Part shown: piece by piece, positions 1,475 through 64,000 of the stretch
Position numbering within the stretch: position 1 is the stretch's first letter
How the letters are laid out: every line of letters starts with the position of its first letter
Source of the DNA: Rhodocyclaceae bacterium
GTDB lineage: Bacteria > Pseudomonadota > Gammaproteobacteria > Burkholderiales > Rhodocyclaceae
Direction: 5' to 3'
Assembly (NCBI GenBank): GCA_016721505.1
Contig: JADKHX010000002.1
Coordinates: forward strand, 37,126-101,125
DNA length: 64,000 nucleotides
Position numbers and translations under genes: made by a program
Notes under the pieces: model-generated
What the model was told of the DNA's origin: nothing
The model's input: the letters and a program-made list of their open reading frames with translations, nothing else
Databases searched by the model: none

Positions 1475-2299
1475 ATGCCAGAACTCCCCGAAGTTGAAGT
1501 GACGCGACGCGGTATCGCGCCTAGCTTGATTGGACGGCGTGTCACCAACACCAACTGGCGAGTTCCGGCTTTGCGCTATCCCTTGCCCAGTGATAAGACC
1601 GCACAGTTCACCGGCTTACCCTTGCTGGCGGTGCATCGCCGCGCCAAATATTTGCTGCTGGAATTCGCTAGCGGGCATTTGCTGATTCACCTTGGCATGT
1701 CTGGCAGTTTGCGGTTGGTCAGTCCTAGTCTTGCACCAGCGAAGCACGATCATGTTGATCTGGTTTTTGGCAGCGGTAAATCCGCCATTGCGCTGCGCAT
1801 GCACGACCCACGCCGCTTCGGCGCGATTTTGTGGCTGGAAGGCGATGCGTTTTCGCACCCGCTGTTAAACGTGCTGGGCATAGAACCACTGACCGATGAA
1901 TTCACCGCAGCATGGCTTAAAAAATCGCTGACCAATTTGAAAGCGGCAATCAAACCGACACTGATGGACGGTCATCGTATTGTCGGCATTGGCAATATTT
2001 ATGCCTCTGAAAGTTTGTTCCGCGCCGGCATCCACCCGGCCGTACCGGCGGGCAAAGTGTCTTTGAAACGCTTGGCGCGATTAGTACCGGTAATCAAAGA
2101 GACGCTCGCCGCAGCGATAAACGCAGGCGGCAGTTCCTTGCGCGATTTCATCCACTCCGATGGTAGTTCGGGCTATTTTCAACAGCAGTATTTTGCCTAT
2201 GGCCGCAAAGGCGAGCCGTGCCGTGTTTGTCAATCGCCCATCCGTGAAATACGACAAGCTCAACGGGCGACTTTTTTTTGCGCACGCTGTCAGCGATAG
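1475..2299 (+). CDS. mutM: formamidopyrimidine-DNA glycosylase
   Basis: 274 aa. Has N-terminal MPELPEVE, HLGMSGS, and a C-terminal zinc finger CRVC...CARC. Confidence 0.95.
   Translation: MPELPEVEVTRRGIAPSLIGRRVTNTNWRVPALRYPLPSDKTAQFTGLPLLAVHRRAKYLLLEFASGHLLIHLGMSGSLRLVSPSLAPAKHDHVDLVFGSGKSAIALRMHDPRRFGAILWLEGDAFSHPLLNVLGIEPLTDEFTAAWLKKSLTNLKAAIKPTLMDGHRIVGIGNIYASESLFRAGIHPAVPAGKVSLKRLARLVPVIKETLAAAINAGGSSLRDFIHSDGSSGYFQQQYFAYGRKGEPCRVCQSPIREIRQAQRATFFCARCQR
1534..1560 (+). repeat. 27-nt motif copy inside mutM
   Basis: ACGGCGTGTCACCAACACCAACTGGCG. Matches the family consensus with one core change (G->A). Read as RRVTNTNWR. Confidence 0.6.
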
Positions 2300-2485
2300 C
2301 CTTGTTTAGTATTGGTCGCACTAGCTTTCACATTTCATCCGCTCAAAACCGCCGTTCATCGCATTAGTTGATTTTTTTGTATGCCGTTGCTATTAAGATG
2401 CCGGTTCGCGCCGCGACGCCTACCTGAAATCTCGTGGCCTTGAAATTCACTATCCACAACGCAGGAATTAATTGGAGAAAACAGC

Positions 2486-4525
2486 ATGGTTCAGCGCAAT
2501 TTCCATACAGGTTTGAAGGTTTTAGCCGCATCGCTTTTGTGCATCGGTTTCGCCAGTTTAGGTACAGCCGCCGAATTGAAGTCGGGCGTCGAAAAACAAT
2601 ATTTCGACCCCAGCGTACGGATTCAAGACAATATTTTTCTGGCCGTGAACGGGACCTGGATTAAGAACACACCGATTCCAGCGGACAAAGGTCGTTTTGG
2701 TGCATTCGACATTTTGCGTGACACCAGCGAAACCCGCACGCGAATGATTATTGAGGACGCTGCCGCCAAAAAACAAGCCAAAGGCAGCGAAGGCGAGAAA
2801 ATCGGCATGCTTTACAACAGCTTTATGGACGAAGCCACGGTTGAGCGTTTGGGCATCAAGCCCCTGGCTGCCGACTTGAAGAAGATCGCTGCAATCAAAA
2901 CCACAAAAGACATCGCCAAGGTGATGGGCGAAATGCAAACAGCCCAGATCAATGGGCCGTTGCGGCTTGATGTCAACCAAGACGCAAAAGATTCGACGCG
3001 TTATCAAACCGACGTGCGCCAGGGCGGCTTGGGCATGCCTGATCGCGATTACTTTTTGAAAGACGATCCTCGCTTCAAAGCGGCACGCGACGCGTATGTG
3101 GTGTACCTCACGACACTTTTCAAACTGGCCGGCGAAAAAGCGCCAGAGGCTGCGGCAGCGAGTGTGATGAAACTTGAAACGGCGCTAGCGCAGATTCAAT
3201 GGACAAAGGTTGAAAATCGCAATCCGGAAAAAACTTATAACAAGAAGACACCTGCTGATTTGGCCAAGCTCACGCCGGAGTTTGACTGGGCGACCTACCT
3301 CACGGCAGGTCATGTCGGCAAGATTAGTGATTTGAATTTGAACCAGCCTAGCTATGCCGTTGGCCTGGGCAAATTGATCGCCAGCGAGCCGATATCCGTG
3401 TGGCAAGCGTATTTGAAAGCACGCTTGCTTGACGACGCGGCACCCGCATTGCCCAAGGCTTTTGTCGATGCGCGCTTTGAATTCCGTGGCAAAACCTTGA
3501 CCGGCACCAAGGAAAATCAACCGCGCTGGAAGCGCAGTGTGGCGGCAGTGGAAAACGGTATGGGCGAAGCGATTGGTCAGATCTATGTGGCTAAATACTT
3601 CCCGCCGGCTTCAAAGGCCAAAATGGATGAACTGGTCGGTAATTTGTTGAAAGCGTTCAAAGTCAGTATTGATGGTTTGACTTGGATGTCGCCCACCACC
3701 AAAGTGCAAGCACAACGCAAGCTTTCGACCTTTATGCCAAAAATCGGCTATCCGAAAAAGTGGCAAAGCTACGCCAAACTGGAAATCAAACCCGACGATT
3801 TGTATGGCAATTTGACGCGTACGGCGCGCTTCGCGCATCAATTCTCGGTAGATAAACTGGGTAAGCCGATTGACCGTGACGAATGGGGCATGACACCGCA
3901 AACCGTCAATGCCTACTACAACCCTTCACTCAACGAAATCGTTTTCCCCGCCGCGATTTTGCAATACCCGTTCTTCAGTCAAGACGTTGACGATGCAGTC
4001 AATTACGGTGGCATTGGTGCCGTGATAGGCCACGAAGTCGGTCACGGCTTTGACGACCAAGGTAGCCAGTTTGATGCCGACGGAAATTTGAAAAATTGGT
4101 GGACGGAAGAGGATCGCAAAGCCTTCACTCAATTGACCAGCAAACTCGTCGCGCAGTACAACGCCTACGAACCGCTGCCTGGCAAAAACATCAATGGCGA
4201 ACTAACTTTAGGCGAGAACATTGGCGATTTATCCGGTCTGCAAATCGCGTTCAAAGCCTATCGGCTATCGTTAAACGGCAAAGAAGCGCCGGTGATTGAC
4301 GGCATGACTGGCAACGAACGCTTTTTCTACGGTTTTGCACAAGTCTGGCGCTCGGTGATGCGCGACGAAATGATGCTCAATCGTCTGGTGTCCGACCCGC
4401 ATTCACCCGGCAACTATCGTCCAGTCGGTTCAGCCTCAAATTCCGATGCCTTCCACGAGACGTTTAATCTAAAACCCGGCGACAAAATGTATAAGCCGGA
4501 AGCCGAGCGGATTCGGATTTGGTAA
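2486..4525 (+). CDS. M13 family zinc metallopeptidase (PepO / endothelin-converting-enzyme-like), secreted
   Basis: 679 aa with a signal peptide. Has HEVGHGFD (HExxH), NAYYNP and GENIGDLSG motifs. GGAGA RBS lies upstream. Confidence 0.92.
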   Translation: MVQRNFHTGLKVLAASLLCIGFASLGTAAELKSGVEKQYFDPSVRIQDNIFLAVNGTWIKNTPIPADKGRFGAFDILRDTSETRTRMIIEDAAAKKQAKGSEGEKIGMLYNSFMDEATVERLGIKPLAADLKKIAAIKTTKDIAKVMGEMQTAQINGPLRLDVNQDAKDSTRYQTDVRQGGLGMPDRDYFLKDDPRFKAARDAYVVYLTTLFKLAGEKAPEAAAASVMKLETALAQIQWTKVENRNPEKTYNKKTPADLAKLTPEFDWATYLTAGHVGKISDLNLNQPSYAVGLGKLIASEPISVWQAYLKARLLDDAAPALPKAFVDARFEFRGKTLTGTKENQPRWKRSVAAVENGMGEAIGQIYVAKYFPPASKAKMDELVGNLLKAFKVSIDGLTWMSPTTKVQAQRKLSTFMPKIGYPKKWQSYAKLEIKPDDLYGNLTRTARFAHQFSVDKLGKPIDRDEWGMTPQTVNAYYNPSLNEIVFPAAILQYPFFSQDVDDAVNYGGIGAVIGHEVGHGFDDQGSQFDADGNLKNWWTEEDRKAFTQLTSKLVAQYNAYEPLPGKNINGELTLGENIGDLSGLQIAFKAYRLSLNGKEAPVIDGMTGNERFFYGFAQVWRSVMRDEMMLNRLVSDPHSPGNYRPVGSASNSDAFHETFNLKPGDKMYKPEAERIRIW

Positions 4526-4554
4526 GACCTTTGTAAATCGCGTCTATTGCAAAG

Positions 4555-4586
4555 TGAAAAAACAGCGGCTTGCCGCTGTTTTTTCT
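4555..4586. terminator. bidirectional rho-independent terminator
   Basis: Hairpin CAGCGGC-TT-GCCGCTG (4563..4578) has an A-run on one side and a T-run on the other. It lies between the convergent peptidase and ferredoxin genes. Confidence 0.8.
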
Positions 4587-5882
<1,296 letters not shown>

Positions 5883-5897
5883 CTTGACGGAAAATCG

Positions 5898-5910
5898 CCA
5901 GTTGGTGCTG
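5898..5910 (-). repeat. 13-nt core motif copy in the rsmD/ftsY spacer
   Basis: CCAGTTGGTGCTG, the reverse complement of CAGCACCAACTGG. Confidence 0.5.
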
Positions 5911-6089
5911 ATGAAACAAACACAAAAACAGAAACAACCATGCAACAAGGCGGTCGCGCACAAGACGCGCTCTGCGCCGTTGCGTGTGCTGACACGCCGT
6001 TGAACGTGGCTGGATTTGCCTGATACACAGTTCGCCTCTGTTAAAATTTTGCAGCCGCCTATCTTAGCGACTTCTGCCTGCACTCTTCT

Positions 6090-7154
6090 GTGATGACCGG
6101 TTCAAAACCAAAAATTGACGTTGTTAAATCGCTTTCGTTCGGCGAAAAAATCAAAGAAGGATTGGCAAAAACCAGCGCCACGCTGAATACGCCCGTAGGC
6201 GAACTTTTTTCAGGATCACCGAGCGCAGAATCCGGCCCTTCATGGAGCGAACGGCTCAAGGTGGGTTTGGCCAAAACCAACGCCACCCTGAACACTCCGG
6301 TCAGCGAATTGTTCAGCCGCTCGAAGATTGATGCCTCGCTGTATGAAGAACTGGAAGCCACTTTGTTGATGGCCGATTGCGGTGTCGACGCAACGACCTG
6401 GCTGCTCGATGAACTCAAGACCCGCGTCAAACGCGATGGAATTGAAAATCCGGCGCTGCTGCGCGCAGTGTTGAGCGAGCTGCTAACCACGCTGCTTTTG
6501 CCCATCGAAAAGCCGCTGGAAATCACTGCCCATCGCCCGTTCATCATCATGCTAGCGGGCATCAACGGCGCGGGTAAAACAACCTCCATTGGCAAGCTGG
6601 CGCGACATTTTCAGCAACAAGGGTTGAGTGTGTTGCTTGCTGCAGGCGACACATTTCGCGCCGCTGCGAAAGAGCAATTGATGGTCTGGGGTGAGCGCAA
6701 TGGCATCACCGTCATCGCGCAAGATTCAGGCGATTCGGCCGCTGTGATTTTCGACGCTATAGCCGCTGCGCGAGCGCGCAAGATTGATATTGTGCTGGCT
6801 GATACCGCTGGTCGACTGCCGACACAATTGCATCTGATGGAAGAAATCGCCAAGGTCCGGCGTGTGATTCAGAAAGCCGAAGCGAGCGGCCCGCACGAAG
6901 TCATTTTGGTGCTCGATGCCAATATCGGGCAAAACGCGATTGCACAAGTCAAAGCCTTCGACAAAGCCATCGGCGTCACCGGCCTCATCGTCACCAAGCT
7001 CGATGGCACAGCTAAGGGTGGGGTGTTGGCGGCGATTGCGCGGCAATGCGCCAAGCCCGTGCGCTACATCGGTGTGGGTGAAGGCATTGCTGATTTACAG
7101 CCATTCCGCGCCGCCGAATTTGTCGCGGCAATTTTTCCGCCGGAGCCCTCGTGA
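6090..7154 (+). CDS. ftsY: signal recognition particle receptor
   Basis: 354 aa. GINGAGKTTSIGKLA P-loop and DTAGR motif. The start is GTG 6090 or ATG 6093. The N-terminal region carries a ~25-aa tandem duplication. Confidence 0.95.
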   Translation: MMTGSKPKIDVVKSLSFGEKIKEGLAKTSATLNTPVGELFSGSPSAESGPSWSERLKVGLAKTNATLNTPVSELFSRSKIDASLYEELEATLLMADCGVDATTWLLDELKTRVKRDGIENPALLRAVLSELLTTLLLPIEKPLEITAHRPFIIMLAGINGAGKTTSIGKLARHFQQQGLSVLLAAGDTFRAAAKEQLMVWGERNGITVIAQDSGDSAAVIFDAIAAARARKIDIVLADTAGRLPTQLHLMEEIAKVRRVIQKAEASGPHEVILVLDANIGQNAIAQVKAFDKAIGVTGLIVTKLDGTAKGGVLAAIARQCAKPVRYIGVGEGIADLQPFRAAEFVAAIFPPEPS

Positions 7155-7798
7155 TTCGTTTCGAGCGTGTCGGGAAACGCTACCCGCCTGACATCAATGC
7201 ATTGACCGACATTCAGCTTGAAGTCGAAGATGGCGAGCTAATTGCTATCGACGGGCACTCCGGCGCTGGTAAATCTACCCTGCTCAAGCTCATCGCCGCG
7301 ATTGAAAAACCGACTTCCGGCGTGATTCTGGTTGGCGGGCAAAACGTCAGCGCATTGGGACGCAAAGCAATACCGTTTTTTCGGCGCAATCTTGGTCTAG
7401 TGTTGCAGAATCAAAATTTGCTATTTGACCGCAGCGTGTTTGACAACGTGTTGTTGCCTTTATCGATCGCCGGATTCGCGCCCAAAGAAGCCCCCGCCCG
7501 TGTGCGTGCTGCGTTGGACAAAGTCGGATTGTTGGCGCGCGAAAAGGCCTTGCCGATTGCGCTCTCGGGCGGCGAACAACAACGTCTGGCGATTGCTCGC
7601 GCAGTGGTAAGTCGACCAAATTTGATCCTAGCCGATGAGCCGACCGCGCATCTCGATGCGGCGACCGCCACCGATGTCGCGCGCATATTCATGGAGTTCA
7701 ACCGCGTCGGTGTTACCGTGTTGGTGGCTACCTACGATCGCAATTTGTTTCCCGCAGCGCGGCGAATTTCTCTGTCGCACGGAGCCTTGGTGACATGA
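7151..7798 (+). CDS. ftsE: cell division ABC transporter ATPase
   Basis: Walker A GHSGAGKST and signature LSGGEQQR. The GTG start overlaps the ftsY stop. Confidence 0.93.
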   Translation: MIRFERVGKRYPPDINALTDIQLEVEDGELIAIDGHSGAGKSTLLKLIAAIEKPTSGVILVGGQNVSALGRKAIPFFRRNLGLVLQNQNLLFDRSVFDNVLLPLSIAGFAPKEAPARVRAALDKVGLLAREKALPIALSGGEQQRLAIARAVVSRPNLILADEPTAHLDAATATDVARIFMEFNRVGVTVLVATYDRNLFPAARRISLSHGALVT

Positions 7799-8730
7799 AA
7801 ACTTGGTTCCAACAGCACATCAACGCGGCACGCTTGGCCATCCGGCGATTGGCAGCCACGCCATTGAATACACTGCTCGCCGTGCTGGCGATTGGGATTG
7901 CGCTGGCTTTGCCAGCAGGCGGGCAAATGTTGCTCGCCAACGCGCAACAAATATTGGGTCAAGGCGCAACGCAACAAACAACGAAACGCGCAACGCCGCG
8001 CGTGCAAATTTCCTTGTACTTAAATGTCGATGCCGAGCGCGGTAGCGCAGAAAGTTTGGCAACCACATTGGGCAAAAATCCGGCCATAAAGTCTGTCGAA
8101 TTTATTGACCGCGAAACCACTTTGCAACGCATGCGGCAAACGGCAGGCTTGAAAGAAGTCATCGACGCCTTGCCAAACAACCCCTTCCCCGACGCTTTGG
8201 TCATCACACCCAATGACGAAAGCGCCGAAGCGCTCGAATCATTGGCTGCCGAACTGCGTTCCCTGTCAAAAATCGATCATGTCCAGCTTGATTCGGCCTG
8301 GATAAAGCGTCTCGATGCGCTACTCAAAGTCGGCCGCACTTTTGTTGCGCTGCTGGCGACGCTGCTCGGTATTGGCTTAATTGCCATCACGTTCAACATA
8401 ATCCGCTTGCAAGTCATGACCATGCGTGCAGAAATTGAAGTTAGCCAACTGCTCGGTGCCACCGACGGCTACATTCGACGCCCGTTTTTGTATTTCGGCA
8501 GCATGCTGGGCATTCTCGGTGGCCTGCTGGCGTGGAGCTTGGTGCTGGCCGCCACGGCCACGCTGAGCCGCCCGATAAGCACGCTGGGCGAGCTTTACGG
8601 CACGCCGCTAGTCCTCACCAGCCTTGGCCAACAAGATGTGCTGGTGCTGCTGGCGGCGGCGGCCGGGCTAGGCTGGGTCGGGGCGGCGTTGTCGTTGCGG
8701 CAGCATTTGCGTGCGCCAACGAACGGATAG
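7795..8730 (+). CDS. ftsX: cell division ABC transporter permease
   Basis: 311 aa, 4-TM permease. ATGA overlap with ftsE. Conserved ftsYEX synteny. Confidence 0.9.
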   Translation: MKTWFQQHINAARLAIRRLAATPLNTLLAVLAIGIALALPAGGQMLLANAQQILGQGATQQTTKRATPRVQISLYLNVDAERGSAESLATTLGKNPAIKSVEFIDRETTLQRMRQTAGLKEVIDALPNNPFPDALVITPNDESAEALESLAAELRSLSKIDHVQLDSAWIKRLDALLKVGRTFVALLATLLGIGLIAITFNIIRLQVMTMRAEIEVSQLLGATDGYIRRPFLYFGSMLGILGGLLAWSLVLAATATLSRPISTLGELYGTPLVLTSLGQQDVLVLLAAAAGLGWVGAALSLRQHLRAPTNG

Positions 8731-8793
8731 ATTTCTCCTTCGCCTACAAGATTGGACTGTCCCCAAACACCGAATTGGGAACTTTTTGGCCAA

Positions 8794-8820
8794 TTAGCAC
8801 TCTCACCCCACGAGTGCTAA
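8794..8820 (+). promoter_or_regulatory. 9-bp perfect hairpin in the ftsX-rpoH spacer
   Basis: TTAGCACTC-(9 nt)-GAGTGCTAA, 36 nt upstream of the rpoH ATG. No T-run follows. The role is unknown (ftsX terminator or rpoH leader structure). Confidence 0.35.
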
Positions 8821-8855
8821 ACCAATGTTAAACTTACGGCAAAGGAGAATCTCGT

Positions 8856-9746
8856 ATGAGTACCGCTCTATCGCTATCCCCCAGTTTTTCTGCCACCGCC
8901 TTTCAGCTCCCATCAGCCAGTGGCAGTATCGAAGCCTATATCCAGGCGGCGAATCGCGTGCCTATGCTGACCGAAGCCGAGGAGCAATCCTTCGCTCGCC
9001 GCCTGCGCGACGAAGATGATGTCGATGCAGCGCGCCAATTGGTGCTCTCACACCTGCGTCTGGTGATTTCTATTGCTCGTGGCTACCTTGGCTATGGCTT
9101 GCCGCACGCCGATTTGATTCAGGAAGGCAATATCGGTTTGATGAAAGCGGTCAAACGCTTCGACCCGGATCGTGGCGTGCGCTTGGTGTCGTTTGCGATG
9201 CATTGGATCAAAGCTGAGATTCATGAGTACGTGCTGAAAAATTGGCGGCTGGTGAAAGTAGCGACGACCAAAGCGCAGCGCAAATTGTTTTTCAATTTGC
9301 GTAGCATGAAGAAAAGTTTGAACACTTTGGGGCCGGACGAAGTCAGCGCCATCGCCCTAAAGCTTGGTGTCAAACCCGAAGAAGTCGTTGAAATGGAAGT
9401 CCGCATGGGTGGTAGCGATATGTCGCTAGAACCCGCCACCGATGACGATGACGAGCGGGTCTCACCCATTGCCTATCTGGCTAGCGACATCAGCACCGAG
9501 CCATCTGCGATGCTCGAAGCCAAGCAATACGACCATCTGCAAAGCGATGGACTGGCCGAGGCACTCGCCAAGCTAGACGATCGCAGTCGTGCGATTATTC
9601 AACGCCGCTGGTTAGTCGAAGAAGGTGAAGAAGCTGCAACCCTGCACGAACTCGCTGATGAATTCGGTGTGTCCGCGGAGCGAATCCGGCAGGTTGAAGT
9701 CAAGGCGCTGCAAAAGATGAAGGGCGTGCTGGGGGCAATGCACTGA
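8856..9746 (+). CDS. rpoH: RNA polymerase sigma-32 (heat shock) factor
   Basis: 296 aa. RpoH box QRKLFFNLR and sigma-70 regions 2 and 4. AAGGAG RBS. Confidence 0.95.
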   Translation: MSTALSLSPSFSATAFQLPSASGSIEAYIQAANRVPMLTEAEEQSFARRLRDEDDVDAARQLVLSHLRLVISIARGYLGYGLPHADLIQEGNIGLMKAVKRFDPDRGVRLVSFAMHWIKAEIHEYVLKNWRLVKVATTKAQRKLFFNLRSMKKSLNTLGPDEVSAIALKLGVKPEEVVEMEVRMGGSDMSLEPATDDDDERVSPIAYLASDISTEPSAMLEAKQYDHLQSDGLAEALAKLDDRSRAIIQRRWLVEEGEEAATLHELADEFGVSAERIRQVEVKALQKMKGVLGAMH

Positions 9747-9768
9747 GGTTGGCCGTTACTGTTTAACC

Positions 9769-9863
9769 AACGGCGGCGAAGCAGGGGTTTCGCAAAGCAT
9801 TGCTCTGTGCCTGCGTAGCGGGTAGTCCGTACACAGCCGACACTGCACACCAGCACCAACTAG
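9769..9863 (+). repeat. 95-nt long-form repeat element, copy A
   Basis: AACGGCGGCGAAGCAGGGGTTTCGCAAAGCATTGCTCTGTGCC...CACCAGCACCAACTAG. Aligns by eye over its full length with copies at 11109 and 50968. Ends in the 13-nt core. Confidence 0.8.
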
Positions 9864-9888
9864 TGGAGGATAGCGAGTTGTCCCGCGC

Positions 9889-11004
9889 TTAAATCTCCTC
9901 CTCCCCCATCACCCGCCGATAAAACTCGTGGAAGTGTTGCATGCCGTCTTCCATTGGTGATTGATACGGGCCGACTTCGCTACGGTCTTGGGCTAGCAAA
10001 GCGCGACGACCTCTATCCATGCGCTCGCCAATTTCGTCGTCTTCGCGGGCGGTTTCGCGGTAGGCGGCTTGTTGGGCTTGGATGAATTCTGGTTCGAACA
10101 GGGCGATTTCTTCGGGGTAGTAGAACTCGACCACGTGGGTGGTTTTGTCGACAGCGCGCGGAATTAGGTGCGAAACAATCAGTACGTGCGGATACCACTC
10201 GATCATGATATTGGGGTAATACGTCAGCCAGATCGCACCATGCTTAACTAGCGCATGCGATGGCTCAGCTTGGCTTTGATCGAGCACGCTTTGGTGCCAT
10301 TTGGCATAGATCGCCGAACCCGGTTTTGCCACTGATCGCGCGCCGACACGCTGCACAGAATGCCATTCGCCGAATTGCCAAGTGAGTTCGTCGCAATTCA
10401 CCAAACCATTTAGACCTGGGTGAAATGGCTCGACGTGATAGTCCTCCAGATAAACCTCGATGAAGGTTTTCCAGTTGTAGTTGCATTCGTGTCGCTCAAC
10501 GTGATTAAGCCGGTAGCCGCTGAAATCGAGATCATTGGCAACCGCCAATCCGGCCATGTCGACGACGGGTGAACGTGGGCCTTTGAACAATAAACCTTGC
10601 CAGTTTTCGAGTTTGGTCTTGGCCAGATTAAGGCAAGGATTGGCCGGAAATTGCGGCGCGCCGACTAATTCGCCATCTGCTTTGTAGGTCCAGCGATGAA
10701 TGGGGCAGACAATCACTTTGGCATTGCCTGTGCCTTCAAGCATGATGGCTTGGCGATGGCGGCAGACATTAGACATTTCGTAAAAACCATCGGTTTGATG
10801 GCTGATTAAGCGCCCGTGGTCGTGCCACTCCTGCGAGCGGTAGTCGTTGATTTCTGGTGCCATCAGCGCATGCCCGACGTAGCCGGGTCCGGCATCAAAA
10901 ATCAACTTCACTTCACGTTCAAAACGCTGCAGGTCGAAATACCAATCGACCGGAAATTGCGATGTAGCGGGAGCGAGATTTTTGTGTTTACCGATATCTG
11001 ACAT
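9889..11004 (-). CDS. Rieske [2Fe-2S] non-heme-iron oxygenase, alpha-subunit type
   Basis: Rieske motif CRHR...CPIHRW and mononuclear iron motif EDYHVEPFH. I place the start at ATG 11004 (MSDIGKHKN). The upstream 109 codons of the track ORF are read-through of repeat copy B. Confidence 0.85.
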   Translation of the reverse strand: MSDIGKHKNLAPATSQFPVDWYFDLQRFEREVKLIFDAGPGYVGHALMAPEINDYRSQEWHDHGRLISHQTDGFYEMSNVCRHRQAIMLEGTGNAKVIVCPIHRWTYKADGELVGAPQFPANPCLNLAKTKLENWQGLLFKGPRSPVVDMAGLAVANDLDFSGYRLNHVERHECNYNWKTFIEVYLEDYHVEPFHPGLNGLVNCDELTWQFGEWHSVQRVGARSVAKPGSAIYAKWHQSVLDQSQAEPSHALVKHGAIWLTYYPNIMIEWYPHVLIVSHLIPRAVDKTTHVVEFYYPEEIALFEPEFIQAQQAAYRETAREDDEIGERMDRGRRALLAQDRSEVGPYQSPMEDGMQHFHEFYRRVMGEEEI

Positions 11005-11108
11005 GAGGAAGAATCCATGTGGGACGCTTGCGAAACGACATCTGGAAAAGTCTGGCAAGCGATCAACGGCACGGCGCCGAGCGTGGCATTTTAGCGGGTG
11101 ATTGGACG

Positions 11109-11203
11109 AACGGTGGCGAATCAGGGATTTCGCAAAGCATTGCTTTGCGCTTGTGTAGCGGTTCGGCTGCACTAAGTCGAGGCTCCACCCCGGCACCAAT
11201 TGG
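11109..11203 (+). repeat. 95-nt long-form repeat element, copy B
   Basis: AACGGTGGCGAATCAGGGATTTCGCAAAGCATTGCTTTGCGC...CGGCACCAATTGG. Same orientation as copy A. Contains the perfect 9-bp inverted repeat CGCAAAGCA-T-TGCTTTGCG. Confidence 0.8.
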
Positions 11204-11269
11204 CGAAATTTGCGTCGAAGTCGTTTTATTCGAGCTTTCACCATCACCCGTCGGGCATACACTTTTACG

Positions 11270-12934
11270 ATGATTGCACTGCTCGAAGCGAAACGCGCTG
11301 GACTTTTTGTGCGCGCGCATCTCGCCAACAACCTCGTCGCTGGACTCGTCGTCGGCGTGGTGGCACTGCCTTTGGCAATGGCGTTTGCGATTGCTAGTGG
11401 GGCAAAACCCGAGCAAGGAATCTATACCGCGATTGTCGCTGGATTTCTCGGCGCGGCTTTCGGTGGCAGTCGCCTGCAAATTTCCGGGCCGACTGGCGCT
11501 TTCATTGTCATCCTCGCCGCAATTACCGCGCGGCATGGCATTGACGGTTTGCAAATCGCCACACTGATGGCCGGACTGATGTTGCTGGCGCTGGGTGCGG
11601 CACGGCTCGGTACCGTCATCAAATACATTCCGCATCCCGTCATCATCGGCTTTACCAGCGGTATCGCGGTGATTATTTGGGTCGGGCAGTGGAAGGATTT
11701 TTTTGGTTTGCATGCTGCGCCGAACGCGGCACATTTCCACGATAAGTTGGCAAGTTTATTGGTTGCCTTGCCCGATTTTCATCTAGCTACGACTTCGCTC
11801 GCGTTGCTGGCGCTGCTGCTCACGATTTACAGCCCGAAGTTGTTCAAGCATATTCCGGGACCGCTGGTGGCAATGGTGGTCATCACCGTTATTCAGTCTG
11901 CTTTTCAATTCCCTAATGTCGCCACTATCGCCAGTGCGTTTGGTGGTATTCCGCAAGCGTTGCCGACCTTCCACGTGCCGCAGGTGTCAGCGGCAGAACT
12001 GGTGCAATTGATCGGCCCGGCGTTCACTATCGCTTTGCTCGGCGCGATTGAATCTTTGTTGTCTGCAGTAGTGGCCGATGGGATGGCTAGCGGATTGGCT
12101 AACGGTACAAGCGCAACACGCCACGATCCGAATCAGGAATTGATTGGGCAGGGTATCGCCAATATCGCCGCGCCGCTATTTGGTGGCTTCGCCGCGACCG
12201 GCGCGATTGCGCGCACAGCGACCAATGTGCGCAATGGCGCGACCAGTCCACTCGCCGGAATTACCCACGCGGTTTTCTTAGTATTCGTGGTGTTGCTTTG
12301 CGCGCCGTTGGCGGATCACATTCCATTGTGTGCGCTCTCTGCCATCTTGTTCGTAGTCGCATGGAATATGGCTGAGCTGCATCATTTTTGGCACCTCGCA
12401 CGCACGGCGCCGCGAAGTGATGTGATTATCTTACTCATCACGTTTGGCTTAACGGTGCTGACTGACATCGTCATCGCGGTCAATGTCGGCGTGATTTTGT
12501 CTTCACTGATTTTCATGCGACGAATGGCGCAAGCAGTGGAGATTCAGGATGAAACAAGTGAGCATGAATGGTTGATGCCGCCGAGCGAATCCGATGGGCA
12601 AAGGATGATTTACAGTATTGACGGGCCGTTCTTTTTTGGTGCGGCGGAGAAGCTGCAATCCACGTTGGCTAGCGCGCAACAACATGTCGAAGCGGTAGTT
12701 TTACGCTTGGGGCGCGTGCCGTTTATTGATGCGTCCGGTCTTGAAGCATTGAGTGAATTGGTTAGTAATTTTCAAGCGGCGCACACCCATGTCGCGCTAT
12801 GTGAAGTGCGGGCGAATGTGCTGAGCAAAATAGTTCGCAGTGGTATTGCCGATAAAGTCGGTCGAGAAAATATTCACGACTCATTGAGTGACTGGATTGT
12901 CGCTAGCACACCCAAAAATACGCCGATAATTTAA
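11270..12934 (+). CDS. SulP family anion permease with C-terminal STAS domain
   Basis: About 554 aa from ATG 11270 (MIALLEAKRAG). Multi-TM core followed by a soluble STAS-like tail. The longer track ORF starts inside repeat copy B. Confidence 0.85.
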   Translation: MIALLEAKRAGLFVRAHLANNLVAGLVVGVVALPLAMAFAIASGAKPEQGIYTAIVAGFLGAAFGGSRLQISGPTGAFIVILAAITARHGIDGLQIATLMAGLMLLALGAARLGTVIKYIPHPVIIGFTSGIAVIIWVGQWKDFFGLHAAPNAAHFHDKLASLLVALPDFHLATTSLALLALLLTIYSPKLFKHIPGPLVAMVVITVIQSAFQFPNVATIASAFGGIPQALPTFHVPQVSAAELVQLIGPAFTIALLGAIESLLSAVVADGMASGLANGTSATRHDPNQELIGQGIANIAAPLFGGFAATGAIARTATNVRNGATSPLAGITHAVFLVFVVLLCAPLADHIPLCALSAILFVVAWNMAELHHFWHLARTAPRSDVIILLITFGLTVLTDIVIAVNVGVILSSLIFMRRMAQAVEIQDETSEHEWLMPPSESDGQRMIYSIDGPFFFGAAEKLQSTLASAQQHVEAVVLRLGRVPFIDASGLEALSELVSNFQAAHTHVALCEVRANVLSKIVRSGIADKVGRENIHDSLSDWIVASTPKNTPII

Positions 12935-14574: not shown

Positions 14575-15924
14575 ATGAACGACTATCGAATTGAGATTCC
14601 CGACGGTGCGCCAAAACAACTTACGCGCGCTTGGTTAAGCCTTGGCATTGCAGCGTTAATTGGCGCTGGTTTGTTGGCAATTTTGCTGGTGCTCTCCCGC
14701 ACGCCCGGTGTGCAGGATGTGTTCCCACTGCGTGATTTTTTCAAATCGGCTTTGGTCGTACACGTTGACCTATCCGTGTTGATTTGGTTCATGGCGTTTG
14801 CCAGCGCGATGTGGAGTTTGGTCGGCGGTGAACGACTCGCCGCGCTCGGGCGAGTTGGCTTTGGTTTGGCTGCGATAGGCACGGCAATTATTGCGCTCTC
14901 GCCATTTTTTCCCGATGCCAATCCGCTGCTCAATAACTACATTCCGGTGTTGCAACAACCGATATTTTTTGGCGGGCTGCTGGTCGCTGGGGTGGGGTTT
15001 TCCTTGACGATTTTGCGGGCATTATTAACGATTAAGTTCGGCTCGCCAGTTGGTGCTGACCACACGCCGTCGACGCATTCATTTGCAATCTACCTCTCTG
15101 CGATTGCCGGCGCGGTCTCACTCAGCAGTGTTTTTTTTACCCTGCTCAAAGCGCCTGATTTAGACGGTAAAGCTTACTGGGAAGCAGTGTTTTGGGGCGG
15201 TGGTCATGCCTTGCAGTTTCAGCACACGCTTTTGATGGTCGTGGCGTGGTTTGGCTTGGCCAAGGAGTTAGGTTCACCACCGAAAATACAGTCGCGTGCA
15301 ACAATGATCTTGTTTGCGCTGGCCGCCTCACCGCTGCTAGCAGTGCCAATAATTTTTGCGGTGGCCGACGTCGGGTCAGCGTGGCATGTCGCGTATTTCG
15401 CGCGCTTGATGGAATTTGGTCACCCATTGATGCTGCCGCTGATTATTGTTGCGGCAGCGACCCTGTGGCCGATCCGTAAAATCAGCGCGCCAGCCAAGTC
15501 AGCATTGTTTGCTTCGGTGTTTTTGTTCGCCACCGGTGGCGTTTTGGCCTATCTCATCAAAGGCGTGAACGTTGTGATTCCCGCGCATTACCACGGCTCA
15601 ATTGTCGGCGTTACGCTAGCATTTATGGGCATGGCCTATGTGCTGTTGCCGCGCCTCGGATTTGCGCTAGCCGACGGGAAAATGGCGCGCTGGCAGCCCT
15701 ACGTCTATGGCGGCGGCCAGTTGATTCACATTCTCGGACTAGCTTGGTCGGGTGGCTATGGAGTGCAACGAAAGGTTGCCGGAGCTGAGCAAGTACTCAC
15801 CACGCTGCCGCAAAAAATCGGCATGGGCATGATGGGCATCGGCGGACTGATATCCATCATCGGCGGCATTATGTTTGTGGTGGTTTGCCTCGTCGCCATG
15901 CGCCGACGGCAGATTAAAACTTGA
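14575..15924 (+). CDS. orphan heme-copper-oxidase subunit-I-like membrane protein (divergent)
   Basis: 449 aa, about 12 hydrophobic segments. His-containing motifs parallel the 565-aa oxidase at 60187: VHVDLSVLIWF vs AHGIDMLIFWI, WGGGHALQFQ vs WAFGHSSQQ, IPAHYHGS vs VPGHFHAT. Only one His (FGHP) is present where HH is expected. The family call rests on by-eye similarity only. Confidence 0.5.
   Translation: MNDYRIEIPDGAPKQLTRAWLSLGIAALIGAGLLAILLVLSRTPGVQDVFPLRDFFKSALVVHVDLSVLIWFMAFASAMWSLVGGERLAALGRVGFGLAAIGTAIIALSPFFPDANPLLNNYIPVLQQPIFFGGLLVAGVGFSLTILRALLTIKFGSPVGADHTPSTHSFAIYLSAIAGAVSLSSVFFTLLKAPDLDGKAYWEAVFWGGGHALQFQHTLLMVVAWFGLAKELGSPPKIQSRATMILFALAASPLLAVPIIFAVADVGSAWHVAYFARLMEFGHPLMLPLIIVAAATLWPIRKISAPAKSALFASVFLFATGGVLAYLIKGVNVVIPAHYHGSIVGVTLAFMGMAYVLLPRLGFALADGKMARWQPYVYGGGQLIHILGLAWSGGYGVQRKVAGAEQVLTTLPQKIGMGMMGIGGLISIIGGIMFVVVCLVAMRRRQIKT
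15045..15071 (-). repeat. 27-nt motif copy inside the orphan oxidase-like gene
   Basis: The reverse complement is ACGGCGTGTGGTCAGCACCAACTGGCG, identical to the copy at 63690..63716. Read as SPVGADHTP. Confidence 0.75.
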
Positions 15925-16483
15925 TCAAGCGCCCAACTTCTTTGATAAATTTCATGGGCTCGGGATTGTCGCTGTAACGCATCACAATTTGCCCCCGCCG
16001 GTCGACCAAATGAATGTAACGCGGCGAGGCTTTGATACCGCCTAGGCCAATCACGCTTTCGACCGCTAGTGGTCGTGCGAGCATTAAATCGGGATGCGCG
16101 GCGAGTAGTTCGGCGGCGGGTTCAGTAGCATCAGTAATCACCCACAGGCGCTCCAAGCGCATACTGCCTTTGCCTTGTGCCGTGCGTGATTGCCGTGTCA
16201 AATACAAAGCTTGCTGGCAGGCATTGTCGCAAGCGCCAGGCGCGGCATAGACCATCATCCAACCGTCAGTGACTGCCTCGTGAACGAGCGGCTTGCCCTT
16301 GGTATCGAGCAATTGTTCATAGGGAAATGCTTGCGGCGTTACCACTTCGCCCAAACTTGGTACGGTTGGCAATGTCCATACATAACGAAACATCAACGCC
16401 GCCGCCAGTGGCAACAAACAGATTGCTGCGATTATCAATATGACGCGTTGACCGCGGCGCAGTCCGTGACTCGGTTTATTCAT
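15914..16483 (-). CDS. membrane-anchored thioredoxin-fold-like protein of the oxidase assembly cluster
   Basis: ATG 16483 overlaps the SURF1 stop (ATGA). One N-terminal TM and a GACDNAC CxxxC motif. Function is inferred from context only. Confidence 0.6.
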   Translation of the reverse strand: MNKPSHGLRRGQRVILIIAAICLLPLAAALMFRYVWTLPTVPSLGEVVTPQAFPYEQLLDTKGKPLVHEAVTDGWMMVYAAPGACDNACQQALYLTRQSRTAQGKGSMRLERLWVITDATEPAAELLAAHPDLMLARPLAVESVIGLGGIKASPRYIHLVDRRGQIVMRYSDNPEPMKFIKEVGRLIKF

Positions 16484-17211: not shown

Positions 17212-17268
17212 GGTGGAATCAATTAGACTGCACAGCTTAATGCTTGGCAGTGATGGAGAATGATTTTG

Positions 17269-17466: not shown

Positions 17467-17487
17467 TTGCCTTGATCTAATCAAATG

Positions 17488-49491: not shown

Positions 49492-50469
49492 ATGGACTCA
49501 CCTTACAGCCCGTTGGAATTTTCATTGTTAAACGACTGGCAGCGTGATTTTCCGCTGGTGTCGAATCCGTTCGCGGAGATTGCGGCGTCAGTTGGTGCTG
49601 ACGACACGCTGTCAGATAAGGTTCTAAGTACGTTGAACCGCTTGGTGGCGCGCGGCGCAATCAGCCGCATCGGAGCCGTGTTTGCGCCGCGTCGGGTAGG
49701 CATCGGCGCACTCGCCGCGGTCGCTGCACCTGCTGAAAAAATCGAAGCGATTGCGGCACAAATTAACGCGCACGCCACGGTCAATCACAACTACCAGCGC
49801 GAACATCTTTACAACCTCTGGTTCGTCGTCACGGCGCCCGACAAAGCCGCCTTGGACGCGACCCTAACGCAGATAGAAATGGAAACCGGCTGCACAGTTA
49901 TTTCCATGCCATTGGCCGAAGAGTTTCATATTGATTTGGCATTCGACATGCAGTCGGGACATAGCCCGATTCAGCACCAGCGTTCCTGCGCGGCTATCAC
50001 TCGAGACCTGGATACCGACGAGCGTCGGCTGGCAGCGCAATTGCAAGATGGCTTGACGCTTTGCGCCACGCCCTACGCAGAACTTGGGCAGCGCGCCGGC
50101 ATGAGCGAAGCGCAAGTGCTCAATCATTTGCGACGCTGGCAAGACGAGGGATTGATCAAGCGTTTTGGCATTGTCGTGCGACATCACGAAATGGGTTATC
50201 GCTCAAATGCGATGGTGGTGTTTGATATTGCTGACGACAACGCATCCACCATTGGCACGGCCTTGGCTAGCGTGCCGGGCGTGACTTTGTGTTATCGGCG
50301 CGAGCGTTGCCTGCCGGCGTGGCCGCACAATATTTACTGCATGGTGCATGGTCGAAGTCGCGATGAAGTCTTCCCGATTGTCGAACGTTTGGCGGCCATC
50401 GCCGGTATTAAGCCGACGGTGTTGTTCTCCGTGCGACGTTTCAAACAATGTGGTGCAAGATATTTCTGA
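49492..50469 (+). CDS. nirD: fused NirD-NirL siroheme decarboxylase subunits
   Basis: 325 aa with two tandem AsnC/Lrp-like modules (LNDWQRDFPL... and ERRLAAQLQDGLTL...). Confidence 0.85.
   Translation: MDSPYSPLEFSLLNDWQRDFPLVSNPFAEIAASVGADDTLSDKVLSTLNRLVARGAISRIGAVFAPRRVGIGALAAVAAPAEKIEAIAAQINAHATVNHNYQREHLYNLWFVVTAPDKAALDATLTQIEMETGCTVISMPLAEEFHIDLAFDMQSGHSPIQHQRSCAAITRDLDTDERRLAAQLQDGLTLCATPYAELGQRAGMSEAQVLNHLRRWQDEGLIKRFGIVVRHHEMGYRSNAMVVFDIADDNASTIGTALASVPGVTLCYRRERCLPAWPHNIYCMVHGRSRDEVFPIVERLAAIAGIKPTVLFSVRRFKQCGARYF
49586..49613 (-). repeat. 27-nt motif copy inside nirDL
   Basis: CGTCAGTTGGTGCTGACGACACGCTGTC, read as SVGADDTLS. Confidence 0.7.
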
Positions 50470-50957: not shown

Positions 50958-51552
50958 GATGGCTCATAACAGAGGCGAAACAGGGAATTCGCAAAGCACT
51001 GCTTTGCGCCTGTGTAGCGGGTCGGCTGTACTAAGCCGACACTGCACGTCAGCACCAACTGGCAAATTCGGGCTAGACGAACGCGACCTCGATCGCGAAA
51101 TCATTCTCGCCACGCAAGGCGGCTTGCCGCTGGTATCACGTCCCTATCATTTCATCGCCGAGCAACTTGGGGTCGATGCAGGGCAAGTGCAATCACGGCT
51201 TGCCGCCATGCTGGCCGATGGTCGCATTCGCCGCATCGGTGCAGTGCCGAATCACTACGCCATCGGCTACACGGCCAACGGCATGAGTGTCTGGGATGTT
51301 GAAGATGCCCTGATCGACGAATTAGGCGCGCAAGTCGGTGCGCTAAGTTTTGTGACGCATTGCTATCGACGTCCGCGCCGTTTGCCAGCGTGGCCTTACA
51401 ACTTGTTTGCGATGGTGCACGGCGCTACGCGGGATGAGGTGCAAGCCGATGTCACAAAAATTGCTGCCTTGTTAGGTGACGCTTGCCGTGGCCACGACGT
51501 TCTCTATAGCAGCCGGATACTGAAGAAAACCGGACTGCGTATCGGGGGTTAA
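50950..51552 (+). CDS. nirH: siroheme decarboxylase subunit NirH (5' end runs through a repeat element)
   Basis: The conserved NirH sequence begins about LDERDLDREIILATQGGLPLVSRPY (from ~51073). The only in-frame ATGs (50950, 50959) lie upstream of the 95-nt repeat copy C, which stays open in frame. Confidence 0.8.
   Translation: MLEMAHNRGETGNSQSTALRLCSGSAVLSRHCTSAPTGKFGLDERDLDREIILATQGGLPLVSRPYHFIAEQLGVDAGQVQSRLAAMLADGRIRRIGAVPNHYAIGYTANGMSVWDVEDALIDELGAQVGALSFVTHCYRRPRRLPAWPYNLFAMVHGATRDEVQADVTKIAALLGDACRGHDVLYSSRILKKTGLRIGG
50968..51062 (+). repeat. 95-nt long-form repeat element, copy C
   Basis: AACAGAGGCGAAACAGGGAATTCGCAAAGCACTGCTTTGCGCC...GTCAGCACCAACTGG. Contains the perfect palindrome CGCAAAGCA-C-TGCTTTGCG and the hairpin GTCGGC-(8 nt)-GCCGAC. 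Confidence 0.8.
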
Positions 51553-54528: not shown

Positions 54529-56135
54529 CGAAAGATTTTGCGAAAAACTGCTTCGCGTGGATCTTGTGTTTGCTCAGCGTCACCGCCTCGCCCGGCCACG
54601 CCGCTGACGCCGCAGCGCTGTATCAACAACACTGTGCTGCTTGCCATGGCAGCGACAGAATCGGCGCGATGGGACCAGCACTGTTGCCGGAAAGTTTGGA
54701 GCGCCTGAAAAAAGCTGAAGCCCTGAAAGTCATCCGCGATGGCCGGGCAGCGACACAAATGCTGGGCTTTGCTGATCGATTGTCGGCGGAAGAAATCACG
54801 CAAGTCGGTGAGTATATTTTGGCCGGGGCCAAACGGGGAATCCGCCAAGCATTCTTGGCAGCGCCTGTAACCAGAGCACCAACTCACACAGAAGCAAATA
54901 TTCGCGCCTCACGTATTGTTCATTTCAGCAACCTGCCTGCCACACCGTCGCCGATTTTCGCCAGGCGCGACATGATTAATTTGTTTTTGGTGGTCGAGGC
55001 GGGTGACCATCACGTCAGCATTTTGGATGGCGACAAGTTGGAAGTCATTCATCGCTTCGCCAGTCGCTATGCATTGCATGGCGGACCAAAATTCACGGCC
55101 GACGGACGCTATGTTTTTTTCGCTTCGCGCGATGGCTGGGTGAGCAAATTTGATATCTGGAATTTGAAGACGGTCGCCGAAATCCGCGTCGCATTGAACA
55201 CGCGCAATGTTGCGGTGTCGGAGGATGGCAAATGGGTCATCGCCGCGAATTACTTGCCGGGCAATCTGGTTCTGCTCGATGGTGATTTGAATCTAGTCAA
55301 AGTGATCGCCGCCACAACGCTGGATGGCAGCAAGTCGTCGCGCGTTTCAGCCGTGTATGACGCCGCACCGCGCAAGAGCTTTGTCGCGGCACTCAAAGAC
55401 ATCCCGGAGATTTGGGAAATTTCTTACGACCCGACGATCGAACCGATCTACAACGGCATGGTGCATGACTACAAGATGGGCGAAGGCATCGCGATTCCCG
55501 GATTTCACAACCCGCGCCGCACCACGCTCGAAAGCCCCCTGGACGACTTTTTCTTTGATGCCTCCTACGCGCATGTGATGGGGGCAAGCCGGGCGGGTCG
55601 CGGCCAGGTCGTGCATCTGGATGTCAGAAAGAAAATTGCTGATTTGGATATTCCCGGTATGCCACATCTGGGTTCCGGCATCACCTGGACGCGCGACGGT
55701 CGTACCGTGATGGCCAGCCCGAATCTGAAAGATGGTGTGGTCAGCGTGGTGACTATGGACGACTGGAAAGTGATCAAGCAGATCCCCACCTTGGGGCCAG
55801 GTTTCTTTATGCGTAGTCACAGCAACACACCCTATGCGTGGGTAGATTCGATGATGAGCCCAGCCAAGAACACGCTGCAGATCATCGACAAACAGACGCT
55901 GGAAAAGGTGGCCGAGGTCAGCACCGAGCCCGGCAAAACTTTGGCGCACGTTGAGTTCGACCGCTATGGCAAATATGTGCTGGCCAGCCTGTGGGAACGC
56001 AAACAGGATGGCGGCGCAATCATCGTTTACGACGCCAAAACGTTCAAAGAAATCAAACGTATTCCCATGGATAAGCCAGTGGGCAAATACAACCTCTACA
56101 ACAAGATTACCCGCTCGGAAGGCACGTCTCACTGA
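54513..56135 (+). CDS. nirN: NirN (cytochrome c plus cd1-like propeller; dihydro-heme d1 dehydrogenase)
   Basis: 540 aa. Signal peptide and CAACHG, then a cd1-type propeller. GTG start overlapping nirJ. Confidence 0.88.
   Translation: MRHGLAKDFAKNCFAWILCLLSVTASPGHAADAAALYQQHCAACHGSDRIGAMGPALLPESLERLKKAEALKVIRDGRAATQMLGFADRLSAEEITQVGEYILAGAKRGIRQAFLAAPVTRAPTHTEANIRASRIVHFSNLPATPSPIFARRDMINLFLVVEAGDHHVSILDGDKLEVIHRFASRYALHGGPKFTADGRYVFFASRDGWVSKFDIWNLKTVAEIRVALNTRNVAVSEDGKWVIAANYLPGNLVLLDGDLNLVKVIAATTLDGSKSSRVSAVYDAAPRKSFVAALKDIPEIWEISYDPTIEPIYNGMVHDYKMGEGIAIPGFHNPRRTTLESPLDDFFFDASYAHVMGASRAGRGQVVHLDVRKKIADLDIPGMPHLGSGITWTRDGRTVMASPNLKDGVVSVVTMDDWKVIKQIPTLGPGFFMRSHSNTPYAWVDSMMSPAKNTLQIIDKQTLEKVAEVSTEPGKTLAHVEFDRYGKYVLASLWERKQDGGAIIVYDAKTFKEIKRIPMDKPVGKYNLYNKITRSEGTSH
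54872..54885 (+). repeat. degenerate core motif copy in the nirN interdomain linker
   Basis: CAGAGCACCAACTC, read as TRAPTH. Confidence 0.35.
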
Positions 56136-62824: not shown

Positions 62825-63669
62825 AAGCTCGTCGCCTGTTGGTCGGGCGTTTGGTCGTGCTATGGCTGGCGATGTGCAGCGGCTCCACCCTCGCGCAGGA
62901 CACCAACACCGCAGCAGCAAGTTCCCCCGGCCTTGACCAAAACCTCGCGCTGAAACTCAGCCACGAAGCACTTGGCCGCACCATCGGCGAACATGCCCTG
63001 CTCGACCGCGAAGGTCGCCCGGTCCGCCTTGCTGATTTTCGTGGCAAGCCGCTGCTGGTGAGCTTTATCTACACCGGCTGTTTTCAAGTCTGCCCCGCCA
63101 CTACCAAGCTGTTGCAAAAGGCTGTACGCGACGCGCAGGAAACTTTGGGCACCAACAATTTCCGCGTCATCAGCATCGGCTTCAATCAGCCCGCCGACTC
63201 ACCGCAAGCGCTCAAATCCTATGCACGGCAATACGGCATCACCGAACCCAATTGGGAATTCTTGAGCCCCTCCGCCGCCAGCGTGGCCGATCTCGCGCGC
63301 GACTTTGGCTTCAGTTACGTCCCGACCGCCGCCGGTTTTGATCACGTCCTGCAAGTCACCGTGGTCGACGCCGACAGCAAGATTTACCGTCAGGTTTATG
63401 GCGACCAATTCACGCCCGAGCAGCTCACCGAACCATTGCGCCAACTGATCAACCGTGCGCCAATCAGCGACACCACCAACTTCGCCGATCTGGTCGAACG
63501 TGTGCGCATCCTTTGCTCGGTGTACGACCCGCTCACCGGCAAATACAAAGTCAGTTACGGCCTCGCATTTGAAATCGCTGGTGGTGTGACTTTTTTGATT
63601 TGGATACTTTGGTTTTTCGGCAACGAATGGTGGACGCGGCGGCGGCACACACGTCAGTTGCGCGCCTGA
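62821..63669 (+). CDS. SCO1/SenC copper chaperone, second copy, with C-terminal TM
   Basis: ATG 62821 overlaps the ctaB stop (ATGA). Signal peptide and CFQVCPATT CxxxC motif. The longer track ORF is read-through. Confidence 0.88.
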   Translation: MKARRLLVGRLVVLWLAMCSGSTLAQDTNTAAASSPGLDQNLALKLSHEALGRTIGEHALLDREGRPVRLADFRGKPLLVSFIYTGCFQVCPATTKLLQKAVRDAQETLGTNNFRVISIGFNQPADSPQALKSYARQYGITEPNWEFLSPSAASVADLARDFGFSYVPTAAGFDHVLQVTVVDADSKIYRQVYGDQFTPEQLTEPLRQLINRAPISDTTNFADLVERVRILCSVYDPLTGKYKVSYGLAFEIAGGVTFLIWILWFFGNEWWTRRRHTRQLRA

Positions 63670-64000
63670 TGAGTTCGATATCTGCCGACACGGCGTGTGG
63701 TCAGCACCAACTGGCGAGTGAAAGCCTCGGCAGCAAAATCTGCCGCAAGCTCGATCACCAGTTCGATACCGTTTTCGGCGCAGCGGCCAACCCGTGGCGA
63801 CACCTCGGCGCGCTTGGCTTTCTATTCCTCTGGATCGTCGTTGTCAGTGGCATCTACGTCTACATCATGTTCGACACCTCAGTTGCCGGCGCCTACGAAT
63901 CGATTGAATCGCTATCGCGCGAACAACCGCTGTTCGGCGGCCTGTTGCGCAGCCTGCATCGCTACGCATCGGACGCGTTCCTGATCGTCACGCTGTTGCA
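63669..64000 (+). CDS. cytochrome b-like membrane protein (partial; continues past the right edge)
   Basis: Not in the track because it is edge-truncated. ATG 63669 overlaps the SCO1 stop. My translation is MSSISADTACGQHQLASESLGSKICRKLDHQFDTVFGAAANPWRHLGALGFLFLWIVVVSGIYVYIMFD...SLHRYASDAFLIVTLL. Confidence 0.6.
   Translation, partial: MSSISADTACGQHQLASESLGSKICRKLDHQFDTVFGAAANPWRHLGALGFLFLWIVVVSGIYVYIMFDTSVAGAYESIESLSREQPLFGGLLRSLHRYASDAFLIVTLL
63690..63716 (+). repeat. 27-nt motif copy at the 5' end of the cytochrome b-like gene
   Basis: ACGGCGTGTGGTCAGCACCAACTGGCG, identical to the reverse complement of 15045..15071. Confidence 0.75.

Follow-up and report, generated by a model that had tools for sequence, protein, structure and literature searches.

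Dispersed through a 64,000-nucleotide stretch of a Rhodocyclaceae genome (GenBank assembly GCA_016721505.1, contig JADKHX010000002.1, positions 37,126 to 101,125; hereafter the window) is a family of short, near-identical motifs which, as far as sequence comparison can tell, best fits a clade-specific, bipartite and asymmetric recognition sequence. A force at the level of the DNA keeps the copies near their consensus, and they were created at permissive places in genes and spacers. The motif may be maintained by a DNA-level drive, akin to the one proposed for the Neisseriaceae DNA uptake sequences (DUS) and the Pasteurellaceae uptake signal sequences (USS), a reading to which we give a probability of roughly 40%.

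The family is real, as a first-pass annotation of the window had proposed. At up to three mismatches the 27-mer has six matches in the window (marked in Table 1) against 0.00 expected from dinucleotide-preserving shuffles, and the 13-nt core, at up to one mismatch, has 13 against 0.11 expected; the zero expectation for the 27-mer excludes a compositional artefact. Segmental duplication within the window, which the annotation had named as a way to explain the family away, is excluded by the flanks, which beyond about 30 nt bear no relation from copy to copy. Most of the copies listed in that annotation stood, two of them with starts shifted by one nucleotide (15045 to 15044 and 17488 to 17487), and the identity it noted between the first of these and the copy at 63690–63716 runs over 29 nt (15044–15070 in the other copy). 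Its minimum of 23 identities in 27 holds for 1534–1560 (23/27) but not for 43134–43160, which has only 21/27 to the reference used there, yet fits the true consensus, in which the commonest spacer is 'cac' and not the 'ggt' of that earlier reference 27-mer. A core match given at 54872 proved weak (GAGCACCAACTC at 54874–54885), one given at 5898 as core only is actually the right half of a split copy (5896–6001, minus strand), and another split copy (32391–32488, plus strand) had been missed.

Alignment of 123 copies gives the consensus t-R-ACGGCGTGT-yry-CAGCACCAACTG-R-c-g-a, or in short form ACGGCGTGT-yry-CAGCACCAACTG(R), with about 21 strongly conserved positions that lie in two halves, ACGGCGTGT and CAGCACCAACTG, around a spacer of 3 nt. 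The spacer is weakly constrained and changes within it are mostly transitions. Its left edge is sharp and its right edge fades out; the motif spans 24–27 nt overall and is bipartite, asymmetric and non-palindromic. The 5-bp stem with a CACCAA hexaloop suggested by the first-pass annotation finds no support in covariation, since stem-extension pairing among the 123 copies is at permutation level (p = 0.05–0.65) and only CAG/CTG is invariant, nor in folding energy, since the copies fold as DNA no better than shuffles (z −1.6 to +1.0) and the structure varies per copy; the hairpin model was rejected on both grounds. A known RNA family was excluded because the whole window is without an Rfam match at gathering score, an RNA-level element or terminator because orientation relative to transcription is unbiased (13 versus 9), and a protein-level motif because the motif is read in five different frames.

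At least five related Rhodocyclaceae genomes carry the motif genome-wide. Contig JADJMF010000020.1 of the metagenome-assembled genome (MAG) GCA_016709745.1 matches the window at 99.6% identity; over window positions 1–12303 (L079 8527–20825) the two differ by 0.4%, with 42 substitutions and five gap openings, and by this measure they represent different strains or assemblies of the same species. In a species-level scan with the query GCGTGTNNNCAGCACCAACTG and one genome per species, the Rhodocyclaceae MAGs JANYAW01 and JADKDD01 accounted for nearly all the matches listed, while six records from other taxa among the listed matches (three outside Pseudomonadota) had single matches, at chance level. 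GCA_017994215.1 and a contig from a JGI metagenome are further carriers. In JADKDD the copies run along the entire length of two contigs, of 1.8 and 1.7 Mb, and their strand is not linked to local GC skew (table of 8, 7, 6 and 3). This result, together with a near-even strand distribution in the window (about eight plus and seven minus), excludes a polar motif of the Chi or KOPS type. The orientation check proposed in the first-pass annotation has thus been run, and it gave neither replication-strand nor transcription bias.

A sample of 118 kb, chosen without regard to the motif, contains 20 copies with no more than two mismatches at the 21 specified positions, where none is expected, and the mismatch spectrum is bimodal (9, 9, 2, 0, 2 and 1 copies at zero to five mismatches). 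The density is about 1 per 4–6 kb, or approximately 1 per 4 kb once split copies are counted. Of 130 copies, 57% lie inside open reading frames (ORFs), which make up ∼88% of the DNA, and 43% in the remaining ∼12%; convergent spacers are favoured. Two coding frames dominate among these 130 copies, giving PVGAGDTP (32 copies) and GVSPAPTG (25 copies).

The alignments indicate that coding copies clearly arose by overwriting resident sequence and not by insertion. A 9-codon insertion is found in none of the five testable coding copies (mutM, the membrane fusion protein (MFP) gene, NirDL, AccB and an IS91-family transposase). For mutM, for which the first-pass annotation had already favoured substitution, there is no gap in the alignment to the solved Escherichia coli and Neisseria Fpg proteins, and among the best 120 Fpg homologues, mostly of 274 residues (range 270–281), the carriers have no nine-residue excess. 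Non-carriers and outgroups read GxRVxGVIAR at this site, and the motif clade reads G(R/Q)R(V/I)T(S/G)TNWR. The same conclusion extends to MFP, whose orthologues keep the same length down to 60% identity and have VGAGDT at the motif site, to AccB, which equals E. coli AccB in length, and to the IS91-family transposase of JADKDD, where the motif lies over a linker PGAG already present in ISPps1, although this last test is weak, the homologues being 53–60% identical and the site lying in a variable linker. For NirDL the conclusion needs qualification: the protein exceeds its solved homologue by three residues, not nine, and an existing xVGxxE underlies the motif. As had been claimed, the copies within genes keep the reading frame, and those in the COX1-like gene, WaaA, MFP and NirDL all read (S/P/T)VGA(G/D)(D/H)T. 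The places at which copies were created are permissive ones, namely spacers, linkers, loops and sites already encoding a similar peptide.

The copies are also old. At syntenic loci every comparable short copy has a counterpart at the orthologous position in other species, and no clean gain or loss of a short copy was found among the cross-species comparisons. Orthologous copies are 82% identical against 65% in their flanks, and several intergenic flanks can no longer be aligned while the motif within them is nearly intact. Neutral relics would not survive at the ∼75% nucleotide identity seen in genes, so the copies are being held constant. Sister lineages with 63–66% G+C are without the window form and have variant cores: CAGCGCCAACT in a Sulfuritalea MAG (L088; eight matches against 0.8 expected), CAGCGCCGACTT (CGCCGT-N5-CAGCGCCGACTTTT) in L091 of GCA_030824275.1 (20.8 kb with five exact matches, including one at the mutM site, where 0.24 would be expected), a form also present in GCA_030823565.1, and CAGCGCCGACTCTT in GCA_030247645.1. 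The dialect cores are CAGCACCAACT, CAGCGCCAACT and CAGCGCCGACT. In MFP, WaaA and mutM (with GRRLASADFR as the encoded peptide in the last) these variants occupy the same gene positions as the copies of the window, and the CCGACT form does so in the GT2 glycosyltransferase gene; copies in the LolB and M16 peptidase genes are common to both CCGACT-type genomes. The core differs by A/G at two sites, which are first codon positions in mutM but third ones in MFP and WaaA, and because the codon positions differ, drift or pressure on codon-position GC cannot explain the shift. As read from the aligned sites, the change of dialect is a concerted, in-place change of the DNA motif.

Several of these observations could also be accommodated by the binding site of a host chromosomal protein with a function in nucleoid organization, topology or repair, held by ordinary selection at each site and co-evolving with the protein. 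The conservation of orthologous positions across genera, the resemblance of a bipartite asymmetric sequence with a loose spacer to a protein footprint, dialects that imply a co-evolving reader and the lack of either replication or transcription polarity are all consistent with such a site. We nevertheless consider it improbable, since selection per site would be very weak over roughly a thousand sites, yet the copies override residue preferences in a conserved enzyme, GVIA in the N-terminal domain of Fpg having become TSTNW or SADF. Placement, moreover, tracks local sequence tolerance and not regular spacing or gene class, and no candidate protein has been identified.

A second layer is seen in the long forms of ∼99 nt, which open with AACGGCG and close with the core, and whose outer boundaries are the same as those of the short forms. 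Their cargo consists of two hairpins with compensatory changes and GTAG between them. The first-pass annotation had treated them as elements that merely end in the core; they are instead short motifs split centrally by hairpin cargo. At three sites the short form is, judging from relatives, ancestral and the long form derived. The GT2 site is long in the window, intermediate in L085 and short in L086, L087 and L090; the spacer at 32.4 kb is short in L086 and in the window has its cargo inverted with respect to the two halves; and the rsmD–ftsY spacer has an 84-nt unrelated insert in the window and is short in JADKDD. Since the short form is ancestral and the splitting falls near the centre, the long forms are best seen as small elements that landed at the motif centre. 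Split halves have more mismatches than intact copies, and the aligned sites indicate that hairpin-rich elements insert at the centre and inactivate the copies they split. Neither this central splitting, nor the orthologous conservation across species, nor the dialects at shared sites figured in the first-pass annotation. At strain level the long forms of the window and GCA_016709745.1 differ by four changes in 200 nt against 0.38% overall, a sample too small to establish a hot spot.

Two near-identical IS91 paralogues in JADKDD differ only by a 36-nt hairpin insert, which may represent either a gain or a loss. Several IS91-family (ISPps1-like) transposase genes are present in this genome (L045 2127–2768 and 5496–6995; L062 3902–5419), some of them frameshifted; each carries the motif in the variable linker, and copies differ by the 36-nt insert. 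Separately, an extra left half (AACGGTGTGTC...) is found ∼30 nt upstream of a complete motif at about L025 7850–7900 and about L065 90–140. These extra halves may have been left behind where cargo was first inserted and then deleted.

A rival reading is a non-autonomous mobile element, similar to repetitive extragenic palindromes (REPs) and the REPINs they form or to miniature inverted-repeat transposable elements (MITEs), in which the ∼99-nt form would be the full element and the 27-nt form a minimal two-end derivative, spread by transposition or short-patch gene conversion through an enzyme that acts in trans from another place in the genome. Shared outer boundaries, REP-like cargo with compensated hairpins and GTAG, the recent presence or absence of the 36-nt cargo between the IS91 paralogues and a bimodal mismatch spectrum consistent with template copying can all be understood in this way. 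The short form, however, is without palindrome or structural support, its testable coding copies have gained no nine codons, its comparable copies are all at orthologous sites with no clean gain or loss, and its dialects change in place at old sites; the long form is derived from it at three sites, in one copy with the cargo inverted relative to the halves. A search of 757 kb for an ORF resembling REP-associated tyrosine transposases (RAYTs) or IS200, a weak test because of the query sequences used, returned none. We regard a mobile element of this kind as unlikely. The first-pass annotation had held an uptake signal or drive to fit as well as a REP or MITE family; the former stands, but the latter fits less well, and the behaviour of the motif agrees better with an uptake-signal or drive model than with classical REPs or MITEs.

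Repeated insertion of filler and hairpins at one central point also suggests breakage and rejoining, as might occur if the motif were cut or nicked by an intracellular transfer enzyme, either as the pac site of a transducing particle or gene-transfer agent or as an oriT-like nic site, with drive exerted through preferential packaging or mobilization in place of uptake. An asymmetric bipartite shape of 24–27 bp is typical of such sites. Against this, the sole match in the viral collection lies in an ORF of a structural module and not in a terminase gene, plasmid matches are at chance level only, and no terminase or relaxase is linked to the motif; we judge this explanation to be very improbable. 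The viral and plasmid results likewise led us to reject a phage or plasmid origin of the motif. The viral match is a perfect copy at L089 4852–4872, within a 589-aa ORF on an IMG/VR phage contig of 49% G+C, and the phage possibly infects the motif-carrying clade.

Copies in the window are collected in Table 1.

Table 1. Copies of the motif in the window, with corresponding sites in related genomes ('27-mer match', at most three mismatches to the 27-mer)
Position	Strand	Form and location	Details	Relatives
1534–1560	+	Short copy in mutM (Fpg aa 20–29, RRVTNTNWR)	Core with one G>A change	JADKDD orthologue, L033 1737–1757
5896–6001	−	Split copy in rsmD–ftsY spacer	Left half AACGGCGTGT at ∼5992–6001, 84-nt insert, CAT-CAGCACCAACTGG at 5896–5913	JADKDD, intact short form, L033 6145
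9769–9867	+	Long form between convergent rpoH and Rieske oxygenase genes	Halves ∼72 nt apart (two-hairpin cargo)	
11109–11207	+	Long form 5' of SulP transporter gene	Degenerate core CGGCACCAATTGG	
15044–15070	−	Short copy in COX1-like gene (aa 157–166, SPVGADHTPS)	27-mer match	
17487–17513	−	Short copy, intergenic	27-mer match; minus-strand ORFs 16480–17349 and 17567–18433 either side	
25982–26008	+	Short copy in accB Pro/Ala linker	27-mer match	
30371–30397	−	Short copy, intergenic	27-mer match; ORFs 29413–30348 and 30414–32387 either side	
32391–32488	+	Split copy	AACGGCGTGTG, cargo, CGGCACCAACTCC; cargo inverted relative to other long forms	JANYAW, short form
33797–33903	−	Long or aberrant form in GT2 glycosyltransferase gene	G/C homopolymer runs	Short form at the same codon position
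36052–36078	−	Degenerate short copy in waaA		
43134–43160	+	Short copy in resistance-nodulation-division (RND) adaptor (MFP) gene	LTVGAGDTLS	
49586–49612	−	Short copy in nirDL	27-mer match; ASVGADDTLS	
50968–51066	+	Long form flanked by two heme d1 (nirG/H-like) genes		
54874–54885	+	Possible decayed relic in nirN-like gene, uncertain	GAGCACCAACTC	
63690–63716	+	Short copy at 5' end of cytochrome b-like ORF (TACGQHQLA) or in its leader	27-mer match	

Some of the host and neighbouring genes deserve comment. In the GT2 gene, the motif site at 33830–33895 is occupied by long homopolymer runs of G and of C (GGGGAGGGGGGGG...CCCC, about 20 times) that make the frame across them uncertain; either an artefact of long-read assembly or a genuine G/C hairpin insert may account for them. 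The COX1-like gene (14575–15924) encodes an orphan membrane protein of 449 aa with a weak COX1 match (E = 3e-12) and adjoins SCO1, UbiA/ctaB-like and cytochrome oxidase genes, and the ORF at 17567–18433 is cytochrome oxidase subunit III-like on inspection of its translation. At L085 1750–5057, GCA_017994215.1 has its RND pump gene split between calls of 147 aa and 921 aa, which suggests a frameshift or an assembly error.

Returning to the DNA-level drive, we propose as the most likely mechanism, and the one put forward for DUS and USS, that DNA-transfer machinery with a preference for the motif would exert molecular drive, through uptake-biased transformation followed by recombination, so that resident sequence at permissive sites would be overwritten by the motif and, when the sequence recognized by a lineage shifted, its copies would change in place. 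Biased packaging or conjugative nicking would be variants of the same drive logic. It is possible, though we hold this more tentatively than the drive itself, that Rhodocyclaceae have an independent, third family of genomic signals linked to transfer, with a bipartite site of ∼24 nt and graded dialects (CCGACT; CCAACT with CAGCG; CCAACT with CAGCA), which would shape proteins including a conserved DNA-repair enzyme and would be parasitized at its centre by hairpin elements. To our knowledge, only two families of bacteria, each of them host-associated, have sequence-specific signals for DNA uptake.

A number of observations weigh against an uptake-type drive. The insertion hot spot at the motif centre, which DUS and USS do not have, hints at an intracellular enzyme, and an extracellular uptake receptor would not explain it. 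The mismatch spectrum has few intermediates, a pattern that templated copying of a patch explains no worse than stepwise point mutation does. The ∼21 conserved positions in two halves amount to roughly twice the length of the DUS/USS core, which is 9–12 nt. Uptake signals in Neisseria and Haemophilus occur about once per kb, and the density of the motif (20 intact copies in 118 kb) is about four- to six-fold below this. The motif does not show the inverted-pair terminators that are typical of DUS, and the annotation of the window includes no pilus or competence genes. Unlike the hosts of DUS and USS, Rhodocyclaceae are not known for uptake specificity; in the literature searched, no paper describes this sequence as an element of a genome or ties uptake sequences to Rhodocyclales.

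If the uptake-type drive is correct, signals of this type would extend to free-living, wastewater-relevant Betaproteobacteria, with a recognition site of far greater length and information content and a natural dialect series through which the reader protein might be found by co-variation. Even if uptake is the wrong explanation, a DNA-level force has rewritten a β-strand of Fpg and fixed ∼21 bases while neutral flanks were randomized, and models of genome evolution must account for it. The motif is also a marker for binning and lineage assignment, and a candidate aid to the genetic manipulation of its carriers.

Comparison with known systems places the motif apart from REPs, from MITEs and Rickettsia palindromic elements (RPEs) and from polar motifs, the defining properties of which it lacks. 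REP/REPIN–RAYT systems also consist of dispersed, short and long-lived repeats, and the cargo of the long forms (GTAG with hairpins) is REP-like; REPs are recognized targets of insertion sequences. They are, however, extragenic palindromes, often paired, whereas the short motif is non-palindromic, is often found in genes (57% of the 130 copies) and adds no length. RPEs and in-frame MITEs resemble the motif in lying inside coding genes with the frame kept. RPEs are insertions of about 100–150 nt that add residues, whereas the short copies replace codons without net gain, and the ends of the motif are not inverted repeats.

Like the motif, DUS and USS are hyper-abundant, strand-symmetric and present in both genes and spacers with a permissive-site and frame bias, and they share with it an origin by substitution, conservation in the core genome and lineage dialects (PMC2817400, PMC3630211). 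Uptake sequences are located at poorly conserved residues, with a frame bias (PMC2817400), and DUS exist in dialects and lie where the core genome is permissive (PMC3630211). The cyanobacterial HIP1 (GCGATCGC), the function of which was long unknown and is now being linked to gene transfer (PMC5861425; bioRxiv 10.1101/2024.09.10.611283), is also hyper-abundant, both within and outside coding DNA; it is more conserved than expected and has spread by substitution. HIP1 is, however, a palindromic octamer tied to DNA methyltransferases, whereas the motif is long, asymmetric and non-palindromic. Taken on sequence behaviour, DUS/USS and HIP1 appear to be the closest known kinds.

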